Below are positions 31,318-54,365 of a stretch of DNA of 64,000 bases, piece by piece. Location: positions 180,256 to 244,255 of the forward strand of contig CAZUWR010000001.1 in NCBI GenBank assembly GCA_964624415.1. Direction: 5' to 3'. The notes under the pieces were generated by a model, which worked only from the letters and a program-made list of their open reading frames with translations, searched no databases and had not been told where the DNA came from. The DNA comes from an uncultured Bdellovibrionales bacterium. GTDB lineage: Bacteria > Patescibacteriota > Minisyncoccia > Moranbacterales > UBA1568. Every line of letters starts with the position of its first letter. The first letter of the stretch is position 1. A program made the position numbers and the translations under genes.

Positions 31318-31626
31318 TTATTTTTCGTGTTCCAACGCCGGATACTTTTGGGCATTGAGCGACATCTTTTCTTGTATCGCTTCCGAAATATCGATACCGT
31401 TGAGGAGGGCGAATCGCAAGCAATAGATCATCACATCGGCCAGTTCACGCTTGATTTCTATCGTTTTTTCATCACCTCTTTCGGACCACTGGTAATGCTC
31501 GAGCAATTCAGCAGCTTCCAGGGAAATGGAAATAGCCAGGTCGCGGGATTTTTCATCCCATCCGCGCTCCTTCGCAAATTGGTCAAGGGCTCCTTTGAGA
31601 CTTTCGATACTGGTTCGATCATCCAT
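31318..31626 (-). CDS. MazG-like nucleotide pyrophosphohydrolase
   Basis: EAAELLEHYQWS...ELADVMIYCLRFA is the MazG/EEXXE(12-28)EXXD-type core. The start is probably the Met of MDDRTS at 31626. Confidence 0.6.
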   Translation of the reverse strand: MDDRTSIESLKGALDQFAKERGWDEKSRDLAISISLEAAELLEHYQWSERGDEKTIEIKRELADVMIYCLRFALLNGIDISEAIQEKMSLNAQKYPALEHEK

Positions 31627-31633
31627 AGGGAAA

Positions 31634-31930
31634 CTATTTATCCAAACCCATCTTACGCTTGGCAAGCCTATACTGATCATCCGAGACCATACCGCTCTTA
31701 CGAGCATCTTCGAGCTGCTGCAGGATTTCATCTTTGTGCTTGGCGATATTTTTCGGCGTCATCATCTTCTGCACCATTTTCTGCTGCTCCTGCGGACTCA
31801 TCGCCATAAAGCGCTTCATCGCCATACGCTGGAGCATATTCATATTCTTCATATCCGGAGTACCGCCCGGCAGCGTCTCATCACTTTCCTTCTCGTCTTT
31901 TTTAGTAAAAGGGTTCCACATATATTTCAA
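31634..31930 (-). CDS. Hypothetical Met/Lys-rich small protein
   Basis: 98 aa with no TM helix. The start is ambiguous: TTG at 31930 or ATG 3 codons downstream. Confidence 0.3.
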   Translation of the reverse strand: MKYMWNPFTKKDEKESDETLPGGTPDMKNMNMLQRMAMKRFMAMSPQEQQKMVQKMMTPKNIAKHKDEILQQLEDARKSGMVSDDQYRLAKRKMGLDK

Positions 31931-32061: not shown

Positions 32062-32979
32062 TTACTTTTTATTTTTCCACTCATGGCCTGTCACGAGCAG
32101 CGCCGAGGCGACATAGATGGATGAGTATGTTCCCGCTGCCACACCGATAAGCAGGGCCAGAGAAAAGTATCGTATCGACGCACCTCCAAAGATAACAATG
32201 GCAAGCAAAACGATAATCACGGTAAACGAAGTATTGATCGATCGCGCAATGGTTTCGTTCAGCGATCGATTGACGATGATTTCAAAACTTTCCTTGGCAC
32301 GAGATCGGATAAGGTTCTCACGGACACGATCATACACCACGATGGTATCATGCACTGAAAATCCGAGGATGGTGAGCAGAGCCGCGATAAACGAAGCATC
32401 CACCTCCACCCCGAAAAAATGTCCCAGCACAGCGAAGATACCAACGGTGATAGTGAGATCATGAAACAATGCCACATTGGCCATAATACCATAGTACCAC
32501 GAGGATACCGGATGCGAGACCTTACGGAAGGCCCAGGCGATATACAAGGCGATACCAACAATAGCAACCAAGAGGGCCTTAATGGCATTGGCCTTGATCT
32601 GGTCGGATACGGAAGCGCCGATGAAATCCGTGCGCACGCTTGCGGCCTGATCATCAAATGTCTGAAGCTGTGCCAGCACCTTTTCATTGAGCGTCTCATC
32701 AGATGCCAGATAGCGGACGCTGAGTTCATTGGTTCCGGTCGGCTGCACCGTCAAACTATGCAATCCCAACGTCTCAAGCGATGCCTGGGCATCGGTGACC
32801 GAAGGTACTTTTCCATCTGAAAAGCGCACCTCCATCAGTGTCCCGCCTCCCTTGAAGTCGATACTGAGCTGCAATCCCCAAATCGAAATAGCCAAAATAC
32901 TCAAAATGGTCAGTGCGCCCGAAAACCAGTACGCGTATTTTCTTTTTTGAATCAATTTCCACATAACACTCTTTTTCAA
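32062..32979 (-). CDS. secF: Protein translocase subunit SecF
   Basis: 305 aa with 6 TM helices. It has the SecF N-terminal periplasmic motif (LSIDFKGGGTLMEVRF). Confidence 0.9.
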   Translation of the reverse strand: MKKSVMWKLIQKRKYAYWFSGALTILSILAISIWGLQLSIDFKGGGTLMEVRFSDGKVPSVTDAQASLETLGLHSLTVQPTGTNELSVRYLASDETLNEKVLAQLQTFDDQAASVRTDFIGASVSDQIKANAIKALLVAIVGIALYIAWAFRKVSHPVSSWYYGIMANVALFHDLTITVGIFAVLGHFFGVEVDASFIAALLTILGFSVHDTIVVYDRVRENLIRSRAKESFEIIVNRSLNETIARSINTSFTVIIVLLAIVIFGGASIRYFSLALLIGVAAGTYSSIYVASALLVTGHEWKNKK

Positions 32980-34668
32980 TTATTTCCCACTTCTCGGCAT
33001 CTTGCGTTTCGGAGCGATCAGCCACAAGTGCTTCTGCACCCATTCGCCTAAACAAAATCGTATAATCGTCTTGACCAACACGATAGCCGTGAACATCGAG
33101 AACACTACACCGATAAGCAAGATAATAGCGAATCCTTTAACAAATCCCGTACCCAGCCACATCAGGATAAGACAGGTCAGTATGGTCGAGGAATTACCAT
33201 CACGGATACTAGGCCAGGCTCGACGGAAGCCTTCTTCGATCGCCTTCGGAAGCGACTTGCCGTTTTTCAGTTCTTCCCACGTGCGTTCAAAAATCAAGAT
33301 ATTGGCATCGACAGCCATACCGATCGAAAGGATAAATCCGGCGATACCTGACAGCGTAAGCGTGATAGCGAAGGGTGTGTATGAAGAAAATTTGAACACC
33401 GTGACCAGAATCGCCGTATACAGCACGAGCGCCAAAGCAGCGATCAATCCGAGGAAACGATAGTAGATGATCATAAAGACGATGACGGTCGCCACACCGA
33501 TCAAGCCGGCAAAAAGGCTTTTGTGTAAAGATTCTTCACCCAAAGATGCAGAAACACTCTGCTGTCCGTCTAAAGTAATCGGTACCGGAAGCGCTCCTTC
33601 ATTGAGCCGAGCCACCAAAGCCTTGGCCTCCTTTTGCGTGAAGTTACCGGTAATAACCGCCTTGCCATTGGTGATTTCGCTTTGAACAGTTGGGGCGCTA
33701 ACGATCTGCCCGTCAATAAAGATGGCCATCTGTTTTCCGAGATTTTTTTTCGTTAAGTCGGCAAACAACTGCGTCCCCTCGGCATCAAAAGTGACAGCAA
33801 CCTGCGGATTGCTCAAACCCTGATTCTGATACTCGACATGCGCATCCTGCAGGTTCTTGCCCGTCAGTCCTGTCTTGGTCCATGCCAGATCCGGATACAT
33901 ATCAATAGTCTGCTTGCGGAACAAAATATGCTCAGCGCGAACTTCTTTATTGTCGCCATCGCCACGCTCCTCAACTTTTTTGATGATATGCCACCCGTAC
34001 TGACTCTCTACCAAATCCGGCCATACATCACCTACTTTCAGATCATTATTAAAAATCACATTATCGAATTCCGGTACAAATTGGCCTTTCTTTGCAAAAT
34101 CAAGATCACCGCCGCTCTCTTTGGATCCGGGATCTTGGCTGAATTGCTTCGCCAGGTCTTCGAAATTTTCGCCATTTTTGACGCGCACCAGCATAGCCTG
34201 GGCATCTGCTTTGGCTTTCGCATTGGACTGATCAAACATCTGGGCCACCTCAGGTCCCGCTGCTTCTTTGAACTCGAGCAACGGCGTATCCTTGAGCATT
34301 TTCTTCGCCTGCTCGATATCTTTGATACCCGGGAGTTCTACGATAATATGGTCCTCGTTGCCAGACTTGGCCAGCTGCACGAGCGGCTCACCGACACCGA
34401 AGGCATTCACTCGGCGCTCAATCACTGCTAAAGAGGACTGCAGCGCATCGGCTTTTTTCTCTGCCGGAACCTGCGAGACATCCAAAGCATACTCAAGCCG
34501 GACACCTCCCTGCAAATCCAAACCGAGGTTGATTTTCGGCTTGTTCAAGAAATCCTGCACGGCCTGGGGCATAAACTTAGCCGCCTGAGGATACGCAAAA
34601 AACCCCGCCACGACAGCCAGCACTATAACCAACCCGAATTGTACTCGTATTTTCTGGCGAATTTTCAT
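32980..34668 (-). CDS. secD: Protein translocase subunit SecD with an embedded parvulin (PpiC-type) PPIase domain in the periplasmic head
   Basis: 562 aa. It has the SecD P1 start motif GLDLQGGVRLEY and C-terminal TM 2-6. Residues about 140-230 read GENFEDLAKQFSQDPGSKESGGDLDFAKKGQFVPEFDNVIF...YGWHIIKK, a full parvulin rotamase signature, where the P1 head subdomain would normally be. Confidence 0.85.
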   Translation of the reverse strand: MKIRQKIRVQFGLVIVLAVVAGFFAYPQAAKFMPQAVQDFLNKPKINLGLDLQGGVRLEYALDVSQVPAEKKADALQSSLAVIERRVNAFGVGEPLVQLAKSGNEDHIIVELPGIKDIEQAKKMLKDTPLLEFKEAAGPEVAQMFDQSNAKAKADAQAMLVRVKNGENFEDLAKQFSQDPGSKESGGDLDFAKKGQFVPEFDNVIFNNDLKVGDVWPDLVESQYGWHIIKKVEERGDGDNKEVRAEHILFRKQTIDMYPDLAWTKTGLTGKNLQDAHVEYQNQGLSNPQVAVTFDAEGTQLFADLTKKNLGKQMAIFIDGQIVSAPTVQSEITNGKAVITGNFTQKEAKALVARLNEGALPVPITLDGQQSVSASLGEESLHKSLFAGLIGVATVIVFMIIYYRFLGLIAALALVLYTAILVTVFKFSSYTPFAITLTLSGIAGFILSIGMAVDANILIFERTWEELKNGKSLPKAIEEGFRRAWPSIRDGNSSTILTCLILMWLGTGFVKGFAIILLIGVVFSMFTAIVLVKTIIRFCLGEWVQKHLWLIAPKRKMPRSGK

Positions 34669-34754: not shown

Positions 34755-35273
34755 TTATCGACTCAAAAAAACGTCAGCGGAAGTCAGGATATCTTTAGCG
34801 GCCGGAAATGTGAGCTTGGTAATCGCCTCTTCGAACGGAAGCCATGCGAAACCGATGTGCTCATTTGAGATAACGATTTCGCTATCGATAGCCTCCGCGA
34901 GGTAGAAATAAACGATCTTGAATATCCAGATACCATCACCGGCACGCTTGCGTTTTTCAAGCTCAGTTCCCTTCGCCGTATAAAAATACCGCGTGTGCTT
35001 GCGAAAACCCTTCATAATACTGATGGATTTGATGCCGGATTCCTCTTCTGTTTCACGGCGCAACGTCTCTTCTTGTGTTTCGCCTGCTTCGGAATGCCCC
35101 TTCACATAATCCCAGTGCCCGTGAGGATAGCGCAACAGCAAATACTCGACACCCCTCTCTGAACGACGAAAAATAACCGCACCGACGGAAATCTCGAATG
35201 CGAGCGGAAAACCGAAAAAACTCTGAAACCCGGGTTTTCTTTTTGTACCCCATCCGAACATATCCGGTAACAT
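34755..35273 (-). CDS. NUDIX hydrolase
   Basis: Nudix box GHWDYVKGHSEAGETQEETLRRETEEESG (GX5EX7REUXEEXGU). Confidence 0.75.
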   Translation of the reverse strand: MLPDMFGWGTKRKPGFQSFFGFPLAFEISVGAVIFRRSERGVEYLLLRYPHGHWDYVKGHSEAGETQEETLRRETEEESGIKSISIMKGFRKHTRYFYTAKGTELEKRKRAGDGIWIFKIVYFYLAEAIDSEIVISNEHIGFAWLPFEEAITKLTFPAAKDILTSADVFLSR

Positions 35274-35565: not shown

Positions 35566-36816
35566 TCACTGACGAATCGCCTGGATAGGATTGATCTGCG
35601 ACCCACGCCACGCCGGATACACCCCGAAGACCAGTCCTGCCAACAGCGAAAATCCCATCGCCAAAAGCACCGTCGTCCATGAGAACTGAAAGGTCACCGC
35701 CAAACCAAATGATGGAAGAACGGCGAAAATCCCGAAAAGCAGCGCTTCAGCAATCACGATACCGATGATACCTCCGATCAAAGCCACGATGAGCGCCTCT
35801 ACCAAAAATTGGAAAAGGATATCCTTGGCGCGTGCACCCACCGCTTTGCGCAGACCGATCTCACCCGTACGCTCCGTCACCGCCACAAACATCACATTCA
35901 TAATCCCCACACCGCCTACTACCAGAGAAATCGACGCCAACATCAAAAGCAGGATCTGAATCGCGCCAAAGACAGTCTGGACGGTTTCTTGGGCTTCTTT
36001 GATGGTTGTTACAGCGAAGTCATCCTGTCCTTCCTTGCGGATATCATGCCGATCGCGAAGCAAAATTTCAATATCCTGCGCTGTCTGCGTTGCTTTGGAT
36101 ATATCCGCGATCTTGACGGTGATAAACTGCGCATGATCGGTGCCGAGAATCTTTTTCTGCATCGTCAGCAGCGGAACATAGATAAAATCATCGAAACTGA
36201 TAAATCCGGTCGAACCTCGCTCCTTGAGCACCCCTATCACCCGATAGGTCTGATTCTTCATTTTAATGGTCTTGCCTACCGCGGATGTCTCGCCGAAGAG
36301 AGATTTCTTCACACCCGATCCGATCACCACTGATTGAGACAGTCCTTTTTCCATCGAGTCGGTATAAAAACTTCCCTCGGTCAGCGTGAGGTTTTTGTCC
36401 ACACCTACTATAGAAGCTGTGGCACCAAACAGCATGATACGCTTGTTGAGTTCTTGGTAACTCACCAGTTCCTGCCCTATCACCGCAGCATACCAGGTCA
36501 GCACATTAGGAAGTTTTTGCATCGCTTCGCCGTCACTTTGCTTGAGCGTGGTAATCTGCACACCCGATGCCAGCGAAGTCGCGTTTTGGGTTGAATTTTT
36601 GGAAGCAGACGGAATCTTGACCTCCACCTGGATCACATCCGACCCGAAAGTATCGATCTGTCCCAGCACATAGCCTTTGACCACATCCCCGAGCGTCACC
36701 ACCATAATGATGACGATAGTGCCGATAATGATACCGGACAACGTCAACATCGTCCGACCGAAATTGGCGGTCAGGCTCTTGAAAGCGAATTTGAGCGAGA
36801 GAAAAATTTCCTGCAT
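35566..36816 (-). CDS. ABC transporter permease, MacB/FtsX family
   Basis: 416 aa. TM1 is followed by a large periplasmic domain and the C-terminal FtsX 3-TM module. Confidence 0.8.
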   Translation of the reverse strand: MQEIFLSLKFAFKSLTANFGRTMLTLSGIIIGTIVIIMVVTLGDVVKGYVLGQIDTFGSDVIQVEVKIPSASKNSTQNATSLASGVQITTLKQSDGEAMQKLPNVLTWYAAVIGQELVSYQELNKRIMLFGATASIVGVDKNLTLTEGSFYTDSMEKGLSQSVVIGSGVKKSLFGETSAVGKTIKMKNQTYRVIGVLKERGSTGFISFDDFIYVPLLTMQKKILGTDHAQFITVKIADISKATQTAQDIEILLRDRHDIRKEGQDDFAVTTIKEAQETVQTVFGAIQILLLMLASISLVVGGVGIMNVMFVAVTERTGEIGLRKAVGARAKDILFQFLVEALIVALIGGIIGIVIAEALLFGIFAVLPSFGLAVTFQFSWTTVLLAMGFSLLAGLVFGVYPAWRGSQINPIQAIRQ

Positions 36817-47190: not shown

Positions 47191-48372
47191 TTACTGCAAG
47201 ATTACGCTTATCTTTTTTTCTTCTTTGCCGCGAACCACGAGAAACTCCGCCGTGTCACCCTTCTTCAATCGTCCCACCACCATCGAGAGCGGGTTATCCA
47301 GGTTTATTTCAGCACCGTTCACGGATACGATAATATCGTTGACCGCAAACATCGCCTTATCCGCAGGAGATCCGGCGATTACCGCCAATCCCAATTTTCC
47401 CGAAGGAGAATACACTAAGGCGCCATGATCGCGCTCAAAGTGATACGCAAGATTCATTTCCTGGGTAATGGAGCGGTAGTAGAGTCCCAGTACCGGTCGT
47501 GTGGCCAGATTGCCTGAAAGCTGCAGATCCAGGGATGACTTGATCACATTGGCTGGGATAACGAAGTACTGCTTCTGATTATCCAGTTCCGTCAACGCTA
47601 CCATACCTACCATTTCGCCGTTGTAGTTGATAACAGGTCCTCCGATATAGTCTTTCTGATTCGGAAAATCCATCACTAATACACCCTCCATCTTTTCAGA
47701 TGAAGAAACGGTCTTTTCCGAAAGATTGAATGTCTTGTCGACAGTATTGAGCAATGCGGTCGAAAATTGATCCTGATATCCCTGCGCGGCCATCGCCAAA
47801 GCGATAAGCTTTTTTCCCGAACGGACATCCGACGAATCCGCAAAAGAAATCGCCGGTACATTGGTCGCTTGAATTTTCAAATACGCGAGATTGGTCAGTG
47901 TATCGATTCCGACCAGGTCAGCGGTATAATTCACTCCGTTGAAAAGCACGACGGTATAGTGGGCATTCTTTTCAGTTATCGCCTTACGATACGTCACAAT
48001 CAATCCGTCATTGGTGACCAAAATACCCGATCCGACAAGCAAAGGCGAGGTCGCGGCAACGACCGGCGCATCCCCTACTGCCTTGGTATTTTTAACTTCA
48101 TCAGTCACGCTGACGATTTTCACGACAGCCGTCGTTGCTTGCGAGGCTATCTTTTCCACCGAATCATCTTCGCGTACCACCACCTGTTCCGTCTTGTTGA
48201 TGATGGTCGTAGTCTCGGTAGCTTTTTTCAAAAAAGCGAAACGGGAAAAAACGGATGAATCCGCAAACTTAGGAATAATGTATCGTTCGACTATAACGGA
48301 ACCGACACCTCCGAGGAACATAATCCAAAGAATCACTATCAGTATCCGACCGATTTTTTTCAACACATTCAT
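47191..48372 (-). CDS. HtrA/DegP-like trypsin-fold protein with PDZ domain and a degenerate catalytic triad (predicted inactive)
   Basis: 393 aa with an N-terminal TM anchor. Aligned to the S1C motifs it reads GSGILVTNDGLIVTYRKAI (His missing), NLAYLKI (Asp to Asn) and DYIGGPV in place of GNSGGP (Ser to Ile). The C-terminal PDZ domain is intact. Confidence 0.6.
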   Translation of the reverse strand: MNVLKKIGRILIVILWIMFLGGVGSVIVERYIIPKFADSSVFSRFAFLKKATETTTIINKTEQVVVREDDSVEKIASQATTAVVKIVSVTDEVKNTKAVGDAPVVAATSPLLVGSGILVTNDGLIVTYRKAITEKNAHYTVVLFNGVNYTADLVGIDTLTNLAYLKIQATNVPAISFADSSDVRSGKKLIALAMAAQGYQDQFSTALLNTVDKTFNLSEKTVSSSEKMEGVLVMDFPNQKDYIGGPVINYNGEMVGMVALTELDNQKQYFVIPANVIKSSLDLQLSGNLATRPVLGLYYRSITQEMNLAYHFERDHGALVYSPSGKLGLAVIAGSPADKAMFAVNDIIVSVNGAEINLDNPLSMVVGRLKKGDTAEFLVVRGKEEKKISVILQ

Positions 48373-49377: not shown

Positions 49378-50673
49378 CTATTTCTTCTCTTCCAGTGTCA
49401 CTTTCACGGTTTTCGTCTCACCTTTGTGCCACACGGTCAACGACAACGTATCGCCCGGTTTATGATCAGCGATAACATCAGCCACCTGCTGATTGGCATC
49501 TATTTTCACACCATCGATCTCAGTAATCACATCGTTTTCCATAAGTCCGGCCTTATCGGCAGGAGACCCTGGTATGACGGCGAAGTCAGTCATTTTCTCT
49601 CCTCGCAAAATGAGCGCACCATGATCGACCGCTAAATTATTCTCTTTTTGAATTTCAGTCGTCAGCATACTGTAGCGGACTCCCAAATAAGCCGTCGTGA
49701 TCTTTCCGGTCGACTGCACCTGATCGATAATTTTTTTTATCTGATTGGCGGGAAGGGCAAATCCGATGCTCTGAGCCCCCTGCGCCATAGCAACATTCAC
49801 TCCGATGACTTTTCCTGAAATATTCAAGAGCGGCCCTCCGGAATTACCGGGATTGATAGCAGCATCGGTCTGAATGATATTGCTGAGGTATTCGCTTCCG
49901 CCCGCATCACCGCCAGCGACAAGATTCCGCCTCAGTCCTGATATGATTCCTTTGCTCACGGTATTGGAAAACTCGCCCAAAGAATTGCCGATGGCCACGA
50001 CACTTTGTCCGACCTTGATGGTATCAGAATTATCGAATTCGAGAAAAGGCATATTCTGCGCGTCGATTTTGAGTACAGCGATATCCCTGTTCGGATCACG
50101 TGCCAGCACCTTCGCCTTATACTCCTTTCCATCGGTCGTGATAACCGTATAATCCGCACCTGTCGAAGAAACCACATGCTTATTTGTAACAATCATACCA
50201 TCCGAAGACACCAGAAATCCCGAACCCTGACCGATAGTCTGTTTCTCGGTATCATTTCCTCCGGTAGCACCGCGATCTTGACTACCTTGCGGCATCATAA
50301 AAAAGGGAAATCCGAAGAAGCCATTACCCCTGTTTTGCAGTTTCGGGACATCCTGACTGATAACCACGCTCACAACAGCTGGTGAGGCTGCCTCGACCGT
50401 CGCTATGACCGCGGTATCTTCTGCGCCTATGTCTTGTTTCGTCGCGGAAGCATTCTGACTGCGTACGGATGATGACTGTTGCGGCAGATGCTTTGCCAAA
50501 AATGGCATCCGATGCTCTAGCGTCGGCAATGCCATGAAAGCCACCACTCCGCCCACAAAACCGGCGACAAGACCTAAAAGCATAGTAATAACTCTCTGGC
50601 TACAGCGAAAACGTCTAAACCTCTCTGTGTGCGTATTATTGACAGGCGTCTCTTTTTCAAAAGAATGATTCAT
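49378..50673 (-). CDS. HtrA/DegP-family serine protease (S1C) with PDZ domain
   Basis: The intact triad motifs are GSGFLVSSDGMIVTNKHVV (His), DIAVLKI (Asp) and GNSGGPLLN (Ser). There is a C-terminal PDZ domain and an N-terminal TM helix. Confidence 0.85.
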   Translation of the reverse strand: MNHSFEKETPVNNTHTERFRRFRCSQRVITMLLGLVAGFVGGVVAFMALPTLEHRMPFLAKHLPQQSSSVRSQNASATKQDIGAEDTAVIATVEAASPAVVSVVISQDVPKLQNRGNGFFGFPFFMMPQGSQDRGATGGNDTEKQTIGQGSGFLVSSDGMIVTNKHVVSSTGADYTVITTDGKEYKAKVLARDPNRDIAVLKIDAQNMPFLEFDNSDTIKVGQSVVAIGNSLGEFSNTVSKGIISGLRRNLVAGGDAGGSEYLSNIIQTDAAINPGNSGGPLLNISGKVIGVNVAMAQGAQSIGFALPANQIKKIIDQVQSTGKITTAYLGVRYSMLTTEIQKENNLAVDHGALILRGEKMTDFAVIPGSPADKAGLMENDVITEIDGVKIDANQQVADVIADHKPGDTLSLTVWHKGETKTVKVTLEEKK

Positions 50674-50707: not shown

Positions 50708-51766
50708 TTAGAAGAGAACGGAAGCGTCTCCTTGCGATGTCTGCAGTATGTTTTCTTCGAAAGACCTCATTTCCGGTTGTTTGAATTCGATGCGCGCCGT
50801 ATCCTTATCCCACATATATCCCTTGAATAATACTGTTACATTCATACGTTTCATCTGCTGTGTCAGCCAATCCGAAAACGTGACCTTTCTGGTAAAAATC
50901 TGTTTCATGCGAACCATTTCCTGACCCTGTTCCTGCTTGCGCTCTTCGATGGCGATGATATGAAACCCAAGCGAACTCTCGATAATATCACTCACCTGGT
51001 TGATAGCTTGCTTTTTCACCGTCGATGTGAGTTCCGGCGCCAATGAAGATATAGGGACCCATCCGAGTTCGCCGCCATCTGCAGCAGTATTACCCTGCGA
51101 GTATTCCTTGGCGACATCCGCGAAAGATTTTTTCTGCTTCAGGTCATTTTGTGCTGCGAGCGCACGATTCTTTGCATACGATGAAGTGTCGATATCTTTG
51201 GCATACACCGCCGCCAAAGCATCGCGGTACATTTCCGGCGCGACGATTTTATTCTCGAAATCATCCATGTCCCATCCGTACAAGCGCTTGAGTTTTGCTG
51301 ACACATCATCGCGATTATTTCCAAGCGCGCTTATTTTCTGATCGACAGCTGAACTGACCGCGTCTTGAGTAATGGTGATATGTCTATCCTGCGCCAGTAT
51401 CTGTATCGCTTTATCCTCGACCATCTTGTTCAACAATTCCTTTTCGCGTACCATCAACCGTTTCTGCCCATCCTCGGTCGAAAAATCAACACGGACACCC
51501 GCTTTCGATAACTCATCCGACTGGCTTTCGTAGAAACGCCGTATGGAGGCCATATCGGTATCGACATCATGAAACATAATCATATGTGTACCATTGACGA
51601 GAATAGCCGGCTGAGGCACGATGCTGCGTATACGGACAGAAGCCCCATTCTGAGGAAATAGATAGGTGAAAGCCGTCAGCCCCGCCACCAACACGAAAGC
51701 GATGATAAGGCCCGCTATCACTACCGATTTCACCCTGATACTTTTTGTATTCTCCTGTTCCTGCAT
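50708..51766 (-). CDS. Parvulin-type peptidyl-prolyl isomerase (PrsA/SurA-like foldase), membrane-anchored
   Basis: An N-terminal TM helix and a PpiC domain (FADVAKEYSQGNTAADGGELGWV...SSLGFHIIAIEE). Confidence 0.75.
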   Translation of the reverse strand: MQEQENTKSIRVKSVVIAGLIIAFVLVAGLTAFTYLFPQNGASVRIRSIVPQPAILVNGTHMIMFHDVDTDMASIRRFYESQSDELSKAGVRVDFSTEDGQKRLMVREKELLNKMVEDKAIQILAQDRHITITQDAVSSAVDQKISALGNNRDDVSAKLKRLYGWDMDDFENKIVAPEMYRDALAAVYAKDIDTSSYAKNRALAAQNDLKQKKSFADVAKEYSQGNTAADGGELGWVPISSLAPELTSTVKKQAINQVSDIIESSLGFHIIAIEERKQEQGQEMVRMKQIFTRKVTFSDWLTQQMKRMNVTVLFKGYMWDKDTARIEFKQPEMRSFEENILQTSQGDASVLF

Positions 51767-51796: not shown

Positions 51797-52192
51797 CTAC
51801 TTCGTAAAAAATTGACTCCACCACTTTTCGTAATTAGGAAGAAGGTTGTGTGCCCTGACTGAAAAAGAAGCCCCGTCGTCTTTCTGCGTAGGTTCATCGG
51901 GAACATTCGATTTAATCACCACCGTCTTTTCATTCGGGCTTTGGTAATTGAGCTTATCGCGAGCTTCCTGAGCTTGAAAAGCATCTGTCTGGAAATACTT
52001 TATTTTCTCCTCGAGTAGCGCATTTTCTTTCTGCGTCTTTTGCGCCTCCATTTGCAAAGAGGTGATTTCCTCTTGAATACGTTTTCCCCGATCCATTTCT
52101 TTCAGCGTAGCATTCCCCACCCAAAAAGCCAACGCAAGGGATATAAGTATGAACAACTTGGGGATGATAAAATGAAATGTTTTTCCAAGCAT
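51797..52192 (-). CDS. FtsB/DivIC-family septum formation initiator
   Basis: 131 aa with an N-terminal TM helix and a coiled coil (EITSLQMEAQKTQKENALLEEKIKYFQTD). Confidence 0.55.
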   Translation of the reverse strand: MLGKTFHFIIPKLFILISLALAFWVGNATLKEMDRGKRIQEEITSLQMEAQKTQKENALLEEKIKYFQTDAFQAQEARDKLNYQSPNEKTVVIKSNVPDEPTQKDDGASFSVRAHNLLPNYEKWWSQFFTK

Positions 52193-52445: not shown

Positions 52446-54365
52446 TTAAAAAAGAGCTGGGGTGCTGCGGGTATCGTCTGCGGGAGCATCGTCGGCTGGT
52501 GCACTTGGTTGAACAAGGGCAGTTGAAGGTGATGATGCATGCGCAAATTTCTTGGGCGCAATGTATTCCATCTGGGAAAGCGAGAGCGGTTTGGCATCGG
52601 AAACACGCACGCCTGAACGCACATTGTTCGCCTCAAATACTCCTTGAGAGGGCTGCGCCGCTCGCGGAGCCATAATGCGCGAACTTCCCTGCAATTCCTC
52701 TTTCGCCTTGGCTGCTGTACGCTGATATTCCTTGAGGTGATCGCGACAGAATGTCGGCCGTTTGCCATCCGGTTTGAAAGGCACATTGATTTCCGTATCG
52801 CACACGGCGCAGTACGCGATATACAATTGTTTTTCAACTACCGGTATCGGCTCTTGCGCCACAACATTGCCCGCAGGCATCGCGGCTATTTCTTGCGGCG
52901 CTACAGTAGCTGCCGGCGCAGACACGGCAGGGCGAGGCGAAGGTGCTACTGCCGATACAGGCGCAGCAAAGATTGGCGCAGGCATACGCTGTTGAGAAGC
53001 TGCTGCTGGCGTCACCGGCATACCGACCGGTCGCGCCGCCCGACTCTCCGCCACTCGACTGGCAAAAACCGCTCGCTCCGCCTCAGTGAGCATACCCGTC
53101 CAGCGCCTGATCTTATCCTCGACATCCTGCTTTTTGGATGTATAACGCTCCCGTGAAATACGGATAACCTTTTCGATATTCTCCGCGGTTCCGTGAAGCT
53201 CAATAGGCGGCAACACCGTCGCACTGAAAGCATCCCCTGCCACCCCATCGATCATCAATTTCAAATAGATATTAAACTTGGGCAAATTAACCAAATCGTT
53301 CACCATAAAAATCGGCTCGAATTCTTTTTCGAGAAATTCCGCATCGGCAGCACCGACTCGGAAGCTGATAATCGTACCCGCATTGCCGAAAATAGCATCA
53401 CGCACCTTCTCATCCACCTGAGACACATACTGGTTGGCAAGGATAAGGCTGAGGCGATATTTTCGAGCTTCGGACAAAATATTGGCAAAAGATTCCGTGG
53501 CGAAGTTTTGGAACTCATCGACATAGAGGAAAAAGTCCTTTCGGGTATCTTCTTCGATATCCACGCGACCCATCGCCGCCAACTGGATTTTCGTGATCAT
53601 CATCGCTCCCAACAAGGCACTGTTATCCTCACCGATACGTCCCTTGGCCAGATTGAGAATAAGGATTTTTTTCGAATCCATCGCTTCGCGCACATCAAAC
53701 GACGACTTGGTCTGTCCGACGATATTGCGGATAAGCGAGCTCGACAAAAACTGCCCGACCTTGTTTTGGATCGGCGCGATCACTTCCTGCAACACGCGAT
53801 CATTCCATTTGGTAAATTCATCCACCCAAAACGACTTCACTACCGGATCAGTCACTTTGTCCACCACGCGCTTGCGGTATTCTTTGTCTACCAATATCCT
53901 TGTGACGCCCAAAAGTGTGCTCCCAGGGTATTCCAAGAGCGCCAAGATGGCATTGCGCAAGATGTATTCCAAGCGAGGTCCCCACGAATCCGCCCAGATT
54001 TTTTTGAACACACCGACCAGACCCGAAGCGACCAAATGCCGATGCTCCAAACTCACGCTTTCCATCACATTAAAAGCTAATGGAAAATCCTGATCGGCCG
54101 GATTGAAATAGATGACATCATTGATACGATGAGCCGGAATAGCCTTGATAATCTTTTCAGCCGTGTCACCGTGCGGATCGATAAAAGCGACACCATGGCC
54201 GTGCTGGATGTCTTGGATGACCAGGTTCTCGAGCAGGTTCGTCTTTCCCATACCCGTCTTTCCGATCACGTACATATGGCGGCGCCGATCATCGGTCTTT
54301 ATACCGAATACCCGTTGCTGATTGCGAAAATTGGTCTTAGCAAAAAAAGTGATTTCTTGTTGCAT
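52446..54365 (-). CDS. P-loop NTPase of the TraD/TraG/VirD4 (type IV coupling protein, AAA_10/DUF87-like) family with a C-terminal Pro/Ala-rich linker and zinc ribbon
   Basis: Walker A IGKTGMGKTN; Walker B FFLYVDEFQNF. The C-terminus has a PAPIFAAPVSAVAPSPRPAVSAPAATVAP linker followed by CAVCDTEINVPFKPDGKRPTFCRDH (CxxC..CxxH). Confidence 0.55.
   Translation of the reverse strand: MQQEITFFAKTNFRNQQRVFGIKTDDRRRHMYVIGKTGMGKTNLLENLVIQDIQHGHGVAFIDPHGDTAEKIIKAIPAHRINDVIYFNPADQDFPLAFNVMESVSLEHRHLVASGLVGVFKKIWADSWGPRLEYILRNAILALLEYPGSTLLGVTRILVDKEYRKRVVDKVTDPVVKSFWVDEFTKWNDRVLQEVIAPIQNKVGQFLSSSLIRNIVGQTKSSFDVREAMDSKKILILNLAKGRIGEDNSALLGAMMITKIQLAAMGRVDIEEDTRKDFFLYVDEFQNFATESFANILSEARKYRLSLILANQYVSQVDEKVRDAIFGNAGTIISFRVGAADAEFLEKEFEPIFMVNDLVNLPKFNIYLKLMIDGVAGDAFSATVLPPIELHGTAENIEKVIRISRERYTSKKQDVEDKIRRWTGMLTEAERAVFASRVAESRAARPVGMPVTPAAASQQRMPAPIFAAPVSAVAPSPRPAVSAPAATVAPQEIAAMPAGNVVAQEPIPVVEKQLYIAYCAVCDTEINVPFKPDGKRPTFCRDHLKEYQRTAAKAKEELQGSSRIMAPRAAQPSQGVFEANNVRSGVRVSDAKPLSLSQMEYIAPKKFAHASSPSTALVQPSAPADDAPADDTRSTPALF

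Follow-up and report, generated by a model that had tools for sequence, protein, structure and literature searches.

A probable circularly permuted parvulin domain is inserted beside the intact P1 head in SecD of Moranbacteria-type Patescibacteria

The secD gene studied here lies at positions 32980..34668 (minus strand, the stop codon included) of a 64,000-nucleotide stretch of DNA (the window; NCBI GenBank assembly GCA_964624415.1, contig CAZUWR010000001.1, positions 180,256 to 244,255 of the forward strand); all coordinates below are those of the window. Its 562-amino-acid product is a bona fide SecD of the type found in Moranbacteria, members of the Patescibacteria (candidate phyla radiation, CPR), and is the partner of the SecF encoded by the adjoining gene. 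An extra domain of approximately 115 amino acids, a parvulin of the PpiC type of peptidyl-prolyl isomerases (PPIases), was found at the junction between the base and the head of its periplasmic P1 domain. Sequence comparisons and structure models indicate that this parvulin is very probably circularly permuted, and our analysis suggests that it probably serves as a tethered foldase or holdase, which takes up chains as they emerge.

The parvulin domain is inserted beside an intact P1 head

The open reading frame (ORF) was uninterrupted over its whole length; the initial annotation of the window, made from the sequence alone, had reported the same single frame, and the sequences quoted in it were present. 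The product scored 391.5 bits against the SecD equivalog TIGR01129 of NCBIfam (cut-off 244.4) over residues 48-536. Those features of the SecD family that can be read from a sequence were all found, i.e., this score, a P1 base and head, a five-helix bundle with its Asp residue and an adjoining secF gene. The Foldseek search with the full-length AlphaFold2 (AF2) model returned the SecDF crystal structures 5xan, 5yhf and 3aqp as the top matches; only SecDF proteins and resistance-nodulation-division (RND) transporters were returned, with no information on the insert. The domains followed each other along the protein in the order first transmembrane helix (TM1), N-terminal part of the P1 base, parvulin, P1 head and TM2-6.

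The presence of a PpiC-type PPIase match within SecD, as claimed initially, was confirmed by profile searches. Pfam Rotamase_3 (PF13616) matched residues 146-233 (E 2.4e-24, 86.6 bits versus a cut-off of 22.5), and Rotamase (PF00639) matched residues 146-231 (E 3.9e-20, 73.1 bits versus a cut-off of 21.7). Sequence comparison with the PrsA, SurA and PpiC structures gave matches to the insert with E values of 1e-8 to 1e-15, and the best sequence matches were B. subtilis PrsA 4wo7 (E 2e-16) and the P2 domain of SurA (E 9e-16). By its profile scores and active-site residues, the insert belongs to the parvulin superfamily. The inserted domain, as delimited by the Rotamase_3 match and the AF2 model of the insert, comprised residues 139-252 (33913..34254, minus strand) and stood between the last strand of the N-terminal part of the P1 base (LLEFKE, residues 131-136) and the first strand of the P1 head (WTKTGLT, residues 263-269). 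SecDF of T. thermophilus (3aqp) aligned on either side of it, with residues 43-144 and 268-554, and approximately 123 residues stood here in the place of approximately 29 in the Thermus protein. The N-terminal part of the base (SecD_1st, PF21760, E 6.8e-18; residues 77-136, 34261..34440, minus strand) aligned with residues 30-130 of T. thermophilus SecDF.

The P1 head (residues 263-362; 33583..33882, minus strand) was intact. The SecDF_P1_head profile (PF22599) matched residues 265-362 with an E value of 2.3e-32, residues 268-366 aligned with the solved Thermus P1 domain 3aqo (E 2.8e-30), and the head, which aligned with T. thermophilus SecDF from residue 160, was among the best conserved parts of SecD (mean column conservation of 0.775). 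The initial annotation had placed the parvulin in the position of the periplasmic head, which would leave SecD without its preprotein-capturing subdomain. This version was ruled out by the head profile match and the 3aqo alignment, and its probability is close to nil. The core of the proposal, a conserved parvulin domain built into the periplasmic P1 region, was sustained without the replacement of the head.

The inserted parvulin is probably circularly permuted

The structural elements of the insert were arranged as alpha1-alpha2-(alpha3)-beta2-alpha4-beta3-beta4-beta1', which departs from the canonical parvulin order beta1-alpha1-alpha2-alpha3-beta2-alpha4-beta3-beta4 in that the N-terminal beta1 is missing. 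The Pfam matches reflected this arrangement, as the insert covered positions 30-114 of the 116 positions of Rotamase_3 and started at position 12 of the 97 positions of Rotamase. The missing N-terminal part of the profile corresponds to the first beta strand, the bearer of the first catalytic His, and no first strand with His was found ahead of the parvulin domain in SecD. The domain had been described initially as a complete parvulin at residues 140-230; the first strand with the catalytic His sits beyond that segment, at residues 242-251. This putatively relocated strand (beta1', EVRAEHILFR, with His247; 33916..33945, minus strand) was supported by the assignment of strands in DSSP and by the scores of the constructs described below. 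It follows beta4 (GWHIIKKVEER) through the hairpin loop GDGDNK, and its EVRAEHILF segment resembles the canonical first strands of PrsA (KIRASHILV) and of SurA P2 (EVHARHILL), with which it was paired by HMMER. The two catalytic His residues of parvulins are located on the neighbouring strands beta1 and beta4, and a hairpin leading from beta4 to the relocated beta1 would therefore rebuild the sheet. Hence, the parvulin fold appears to be kept despite the altered order of its elements. Both chain ends would then lie on the same side, at the beta1/alpha1 loop, and the domain would therefore be suited to insertion into another protein.

A synthetic re-ordered construct, in which residues 238-253 were placed ahead of residues 148-236, extended the Rotamase match to profile positions 1-95 (a gain of 3 bits) and the Rotamase_3 match to positions 13-114 (a gain of 7 bits). 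An independent canonical-parvulin hidden Markov model (HMM), built from 118 canonical modules of tandem-type SecDs, gave the re-ordered construct 60.0 bits, compared to 54.9 +/- 0.6 bits for random 16-mer prefixes and 55.2 +/- 0.7 bits for the shuffled strand, and none of the 400 controls equalled the construct. The full-length AF2 model had a mean predicted local distance difference test score (pLDDT) of 77 and a predicted template modelling score (pTM) of 0.47, and the insert was its most confident region (pLDDT of 84-91), with DSSP helices at residues 139-164, 169-176 and 199-205 and strands at residues 188-193, 225-235 and 242-251. When modelled separately, the insert formed a compact single domain (pLDDT of 94.1, pTM of 0.87) with the same three strands, 188-193, 225-235 and 242-251, the last of which had a pLDDT above 90. 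EVRAEHILF is unlikely to be just the remnant of a second parvulin that has been lost, because no other first strand is present, its His shows no variation and the strand is confidently modelled by AF2 as part of a single compact domain.

The best match to the insert model in the PDB was 8hm3_B (8HM3/8HM4; 118 columns, root-mean-square deviation (RMSD) of 2.6 A, TMq of 0.75, 36% identity), a periplasmic PPIase of Bacteroides fragilis and the target of BfUbb. It was the best structural match over the whole length of the insert, the strand after beta4 included, and its local sequence GFHIIQLIEKRGDRINTRHILLK parallels GWHIIKKVEERGDGDNKEVRAEHILF in the comparison with the insert. Canonical single-domain parvulins matched the model over only 80-85 columns (TMq of 0.54-0.55), and superposition of full-length PrsA, the chain of which exits the domain after beta4, gave an RMSD of 13 A over 118 columns. 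The B. fragilis protein differs from the insert in being soluble and SurA-like, with an N-terminal chaperone domain, two parvulin modules and the strand VEVQIITQ ahead of the first module. Its order, known here from the sequence, is SurA_N, VEVQIITQ, module 1 (GFHII), TRHILLK and module 2 (CAIVKL), and a His-bearing strand that comes after the His-bearing module points tentatively to nesting or strand swapping in the solved structure. The gene for this PPIase was rebuilt from the frameshifted assembly GCA_044873885.1 (L081 2276..3710, plus strand), in which the reading frame of this essential gene is broken into three, probably as a result of sequencing errors.

The loop between beta4 and beta1' varied in length from 6 to more than 30 residues. 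Some close homologues carried a low-complexity insertion of 13-14 residues (e.g., PARNASPSDAGGGEGD) exactly in this hairpin loop, which therefore tolerates insertions, in line with the idea of nested domains.

Active-site residues of the insert and their conservation

According to the alignment, the insert contains the set of parvulin active-site residues, i.e., two His (H247 and H227), Asp D179 and Ser S222. With the insert aligned with PrsA, SurA and Pin1, H247 stands at the position of Pin1 H59 and H227 at that of Pin1 H157. D179 occupies the position of Pin1 C113, which is Asp in PrsA and Par10, and S222, ahead of the G-aromatic-H motif, represents the Ser/Thr position (Pin1 S154/T152). 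L189, F197 and F201 correspond to the hydrophobic proline pocket. D179, G187, D188, L189, F201, H227, H247 and L249 were invariant across 68 homologues (60-84% identity), and S/T222 was conserved in the same set.

The combination D-[ST]-H-H at the active-site positions was present in 205 of the 294 parvulin modules found in SecDs. Among the lineages with short inserts, both His residues were kept in 8 representatives and lost in three, where the two positions were occupied by F/P (P0124), Y/Y (P0143) or G/R (P0182); P0126 and P0128 had one His and a Gln at the second His position. The two His positions are coupled, as they were kept or lost together save in the two H/Q cases, and catalysis is evidently not kept everywhere, as far as the residues tell. 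The mean pairwise identity was 0.61 for the insert and 0.71 for the rest of SecD, with a correlation between the two of r = 0.61 over 7140 pairs. Such a correlation would be expected of an old, vertically inherited and constrained domain.

The SecD-parvulin architecture is widespread in Moraniibacteriota

An identical protein was encoded on a 272-kb NCBI contig, and the next 119 homologues (61-85% identity; NCBI, JGI, ENA and Logan) had the same Pfam combination and nearly the same length. Named close homologues were recorded as 'SecD [Candidatus Moranbacteria / Moraniibacteriota]'. The junction segment, which consisted of the end of the base, the parvulin and the start of the head, was additionally searched for in a genome set with one representative for each GTDB species. 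Relatives of this segment were present in at least 426 species-representative genomes, mostly of Moraniibacteriota, and the best 80 covered it essentially in full; the titles of these 80 were mostly Moraniibacteriota, with few Paceibacterota, Parcubacteria and Patescibacteria. The survey of SecD homologues for the same insertion, which the initial annotation had proposed, was therefore positive, with both Pfam sets in 120 of the 120 closest proteins. On these sequence comparisons, hundreds of species-level genomes owe the SecD-parvulin architecture to vertical inheritance.

A frameshift or an assembly chimera, joining a fragment of a parvulin gene to secD, was excluded by the cross-genome conservation. 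The identical protein on the 272-kb contig, the homologues of the same length and Pfam set and the junction relatives that span both borders are all inconsistent with it, the ORF is continuous and the GC content showed no discontinuity across the insert. With no observation in its favour, we consider this explanation improbable in the extreme.

Many third-party annotation (TPA) metagenome-assembled genomes titled 'uncultured Bdellovibrionales bacterium' (loci L002, L003, L014, L015, L025 and others) contained a SecD junction of the Moranbacteria type, with 49-65% identity to that of the window, and one further record with such a junction was titled 'Candidatus Fimivivens sp.'. The 'Bdellovibrionales' and 'Fimivivens' titles look like taxonomic mislabels of patescibacterial bins.

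Tandem and SecDF-fused forms in the wider SecD family

The wider family was explored by a HMMER search of 1.84 billion cluster representatives, from which the best 150 SecDs were examined. Our own HMM (E 1e-3) detected one parvulin module in 55 of these proteins, two in 17 and none in 78; weaker parvulin remnants were recognised by Pfam in 2 of those 78 (P0187 and P0241). Wherever a SecD had a parvulin module together with both flanking domains in its sequence, the module was located between the N-terminal part of the base and the head. The variants comprised short single-insert forms, tandem forms of 650-705 amino acids, forms of 775-940 amino acids with further sequence and SecDF fusions of 877-1119 amino acids (including P0124, P0137, P0150 and P0155). 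Proteins of the tandem class (P0130-P0141, P0145 and P0304-P0422) were named as Falkowbacteria, Parcubacteria or Patescibacteria.

In the long forms, the inner module was a complete canonical parvulin (positions 1-96 of the Pfam Rotamase profile). Among the 120 tandem SecDs, His was never found in beta4 of the outer module (0/120), was present in the strand between the modules in 119 and in beta4 of the inner module in all 120, and occurred in the strand after the inner module in 49. This pattern is compatible with a degenerate permuted parvulin that holds a canonical, catalytic one within its beta4-to-beta1' loop, and the degenerate outer module appears to be completed by the strand after the inner domain. 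The tandem and SecDF-fused proteins of other Patescibacteria (e.g., P0130 and P0137) share the insertion site with the SecD of the window and differ from it in having two modules, a complete canonical inner one and a degenerate outer one, instead of a single permuted module.

Other SecDs also carried additional sequence at the base/head junction. Inserts of approximately 100-190 amino acids were found in P0144, P0148 and P0203, with no Pfam match, and the larger inserts of P0187 and P0241 (approximately 230 and 400 amino acids) were those with weak Rotamase matches. E. coli SecD (5mg3_D) has a long insert at the same junction, its head starting only near residues 312-325. In SecDs generally, the P1 base/head junction seems to be a hot spot at which accessory domains are inserted.

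A stand-alone PrsA-like protein is encoded in the same window

The separate PrsA-like gene noted in the initial annotation was found on the minus strand at 50708..51766. Its product is a membrane-anchored PrsA/SurA-like chaperone with a Rotamase domain (Pfam E 5.9e-18) and a SurA_N_3 domain. It was collinear with the SecD insert through the strand after beta4 (BLASTP E 4e-10), its Pfam match started at profile position 14, and the His strand ahead of alpha1 was absent. After the segment GFHIIAIEER came EMVRMKQIFTRK, in which Gln takes the place of the His. Judging from this alignment, the elements of the stand-alone protein are apparently permuted in the same way as those of the insert. The fused parvulin does not substitute for a stand-alone chaperone, because one is still encoded in the window.

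The PrsA-like gene is located directly upstream of a gene for an HtrA/DegP-like protease (49378..50673, minus strand), and a second such protease is encoded 2 kb away (47191..48372, minus strand). Together, they look like an envelope quality-control cluster.

Discussion

The SecD described here shares TM1, the GG motif, the P1 base and head, the five-helix bundle and the Asp residue with canonical SecD and SecDF proteins (T. thermophilus 3AQP/5YHF; D. radiodurans 5XAN), and its secF adjoins. It differs in the approximately 115 extra residues, present as a parvulin, between the N-terminal part of the base and the head. The insert is a parvulin of the same subfamily as those of PrsA (Bacillus), PpiD and SurA (E. 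coli), catalytic-type residues are present in it, and the presumed clients are likewise chains leaving SecYEG. Those proteins are separate lipoproteins, anchored or soluble, whereas the parvulin is here covalently built into SecD and permuted. No Pfam match to SurA_N or to a trigger-factor-like chaperone (NC) domain was found in the SecD protein; lacking an NC domain, it is not a member of the PrsA/SurA/PpiD family, although it may work like one.

Published work links SecDF and SecYEG with chaperones. The P1 head of SecDF has a cavity proposed to bind preproteins, and its proton-driven rotation between the F and I forms pulls chains from SecYEG (PMC8082313). The holo-translocon is bound by SurA, for which the periplasmic domains of SecDF have been proposed as the recruiting site (PMC9987972), and PpiD-YfgM is found in association with SecYEG (PMC9643414). 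The PrsA-like PPIC lipoproteins (Mdp) of Mycoplasma pneumoniae form, with SecDF and SecYEG, a dome in which an active PPIC domain touches density assigned to the emerging substrate (bioRxiv 10.1101/2025.04.25.650208, 10.1101/2024.09.05.611430). That organism is likewise genome-reduced, and PPIC/parvulin domains are held over its translocon in contact with SecDF; there, they belong to giant PrsA-like lipoproteins (Mdp444/436/489) that associate non-covalently, in contrast to the single small parvulin fused into SecD here.

By analogy, SecDF would swing its P1 head by means of the proton-motive force, and the head would capture the chain leaving SecYEG. With the parvulin anchored in the connector between base and head, its place would be the neck of the head, close to the chain that is set free and still unfolded, and it could be the first to hold that chain and to isomerise its Xaa-Pro bonds. 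Elsewhere, separate proteins do the equivalent job, namely PrsA (Gram-positive bacteria) and PpiD and SurA (E. coli). The fusion would hard-wire a recruitment of chaperones that other bacteria reach by non-covalent contacts between SecDF and the chaperone. Small-genome CPR bacteria are generally taken to be without an outer membrane. The coupling of translocation to prolyl isomerisation and chaperoning, proposed in the initial annotation, is plausible and fits the published links, and it remains a step that we infer. Several observations weigh against a tethered foldase. The full-length model, from which the position of the parvulin with respect to the head cavity and SecYEG would have to be read, had a pTM of only 0.47; conservation is somewhat lower in the insert than elsewhere in SecD; the inserts of several other lineages (P0124, P0143 and P0182) are degenerate and His-less, and the outer modules of tandem forms are degenerate as well; and the separate PrsA-like protein of the same genome implies that the fused domain is no replacement for it.

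The His-less and degenerate versions favour an alternative in which the insert is mainly a non-catalytic module for substrate binding or docking, comparable to the PpiD parvulin and SurA P1, that enlarges or shields the periplasmic surface of SecD and for which isomerase chemistry is dispensable. The parvulin domains of PpiD and SurA P1 are catalytically inactive. Lineages have independently lost both His residues or carry Gln while keeping the domain, and a beta4 His is never seen in the outer module of tandem SecDs; the role of the insert therefore does not depend on PPIase chemistry in every lineage. The closest homologues argue the other way, since the set of 68 shows no variation at D179, H227 and H247 and conserves S/T222, and both His are always retained in one of the modules of tandem forms (119 and 120 of 120 at the two positions). 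Such conserved residues and such a retained two-His module form the pattern that purifying selection on catalysis would produce, and we regard a chiefly non-catalytic role as rather unlikely, though as the main rival. The conserved active site also speaks against a role in cis, with the insert as a brake, spacer or latch tuning the swing of the P1 head, or as an aid to the folding or assembly of SecD and SecF, and not acting on exported clients. The insert does sit exactly in the base-to-head connector, which is the hinge of SecDF (hinge motion: PMC8082313), and the same junction hosts unrelated inserts of 100-400 amino acids in other SecDs, such that the site tolerates, and perhaps exploits, varied bulk. 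A purely mechanical function would not conserve parvulin active-site residues, nor does it account for the fact that tandem forms have repeatedly kept a module that looks fully catalytic, and a cis role is accordingly quite improbable.

A tethered foldase or holdase remains the reading that we prefer, and a broader version of it can be offered tentatively, as a possibility on the doubtful side. The permuted unit, running from alpha1 to beta4 and then beta1', could be a reusable cassette of Patescibacteria, set in the moving neck of SecD P1, so that a foldase or holdase swung by the proton-driven SecDF would be handed each chain. If true, this would constitute a minimal covalent machine for translocation and folding, and it would also explain the PrsA-like protein of this genome, the nested tandem SecDs of the Falkowbacteria type and possibly the Bacteroides PPIase 8HM3.

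No description of a fusion of parvulin with SecD, or of a permuted parvulin, was found in the full-text literature, with most subscription journals lying outside the search. The combination of SecD and parvulin domains is visible in precomputed Pfam annotations, without interpretation, and public records say only 'SecD'. A circular permutation of the parvulin fold appears to be undescribed so far. The underlying idea of chaperones at the Sec exit is already current, and the addition made here consists of the fusion and the topological variant. How chains are handed over from SecYEG to folding factors is an open question. As a natural, ancient and widespread covalent fusion, the SecD-parvulin architecture provides independent 'Rosetta-stone' evidence for a functional link between SecDF and chaperones, and it offers a compact model for translocation-coupled folding, consisting of one polypeptide and SecF. 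It also draws attention to the P1 base/head junction as an evolutionary docking site for accessory domains and, with regard to CPR biology, to small genomes that seem to economise by fusing envelope functions.

Remaining SecD domains and neighbouring genes

TM1 (approximately residues 10-26; 34591..34641, minus strand) was recognised as the hydrophobic stretch FGLVIVLAVVAGFFAY, which lies inside helix 3-25 of the AF2 model. It is followed by the Sec_GG motif GLDLQGGVRLEY (PF07549, E 3.6e-4; residues 44-63, 34480..34539, minus strand), within which L50-G55 were invariant in the 68 homologues. The TM2-TM6 bundle (SecD_SecF_C, PF02355, E 2.9e-11; residues 369-538, 33055..33564, minus strand) contained the conserved motif GMAVDANILIFER with D454, invariant in the same homologues and placed by the 3aqp alignment opposite the Asp of Thermus GAAVDGNVLSFER (GAAVDGN).

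The adjoining secF gene (32062..32979, minus strand) scored 269 bits against TIGR00966 (cut-off 160) and matched Pfam SecD_SecF_C with an E value of 1.1e-54. The secD stop codon occupies positions 32982..32980, and the first possible secF start is a TTG at 32979, the next base. This abutment of stop and start suggests that secD and secF form one operon with translational coupling. No YajC-like gene adjoining secD or secF was found among the flanking genes, and a scan for promoters and terminators around secDF gave scores at chance level. Genes for a NUDIX hydrolase (34755..35273) and a MacB/FtsX-type permease (35566..36816) are located upstream of secD, and an ORF of 98 amino acids (31634..31930) and a MazG-like gene (31318..31731) lie downstream of secF. 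Elsewhere in the window, a DivIC-like gene (51797..52192) adjoins a gene on the minus strand (52446..54365) for a 639-amino-acid VirD4/TraG/TrwB-like coupling-protein ATPase with a C-terminal treble-clef zinc finger and a Pro/Ala-rich linker.

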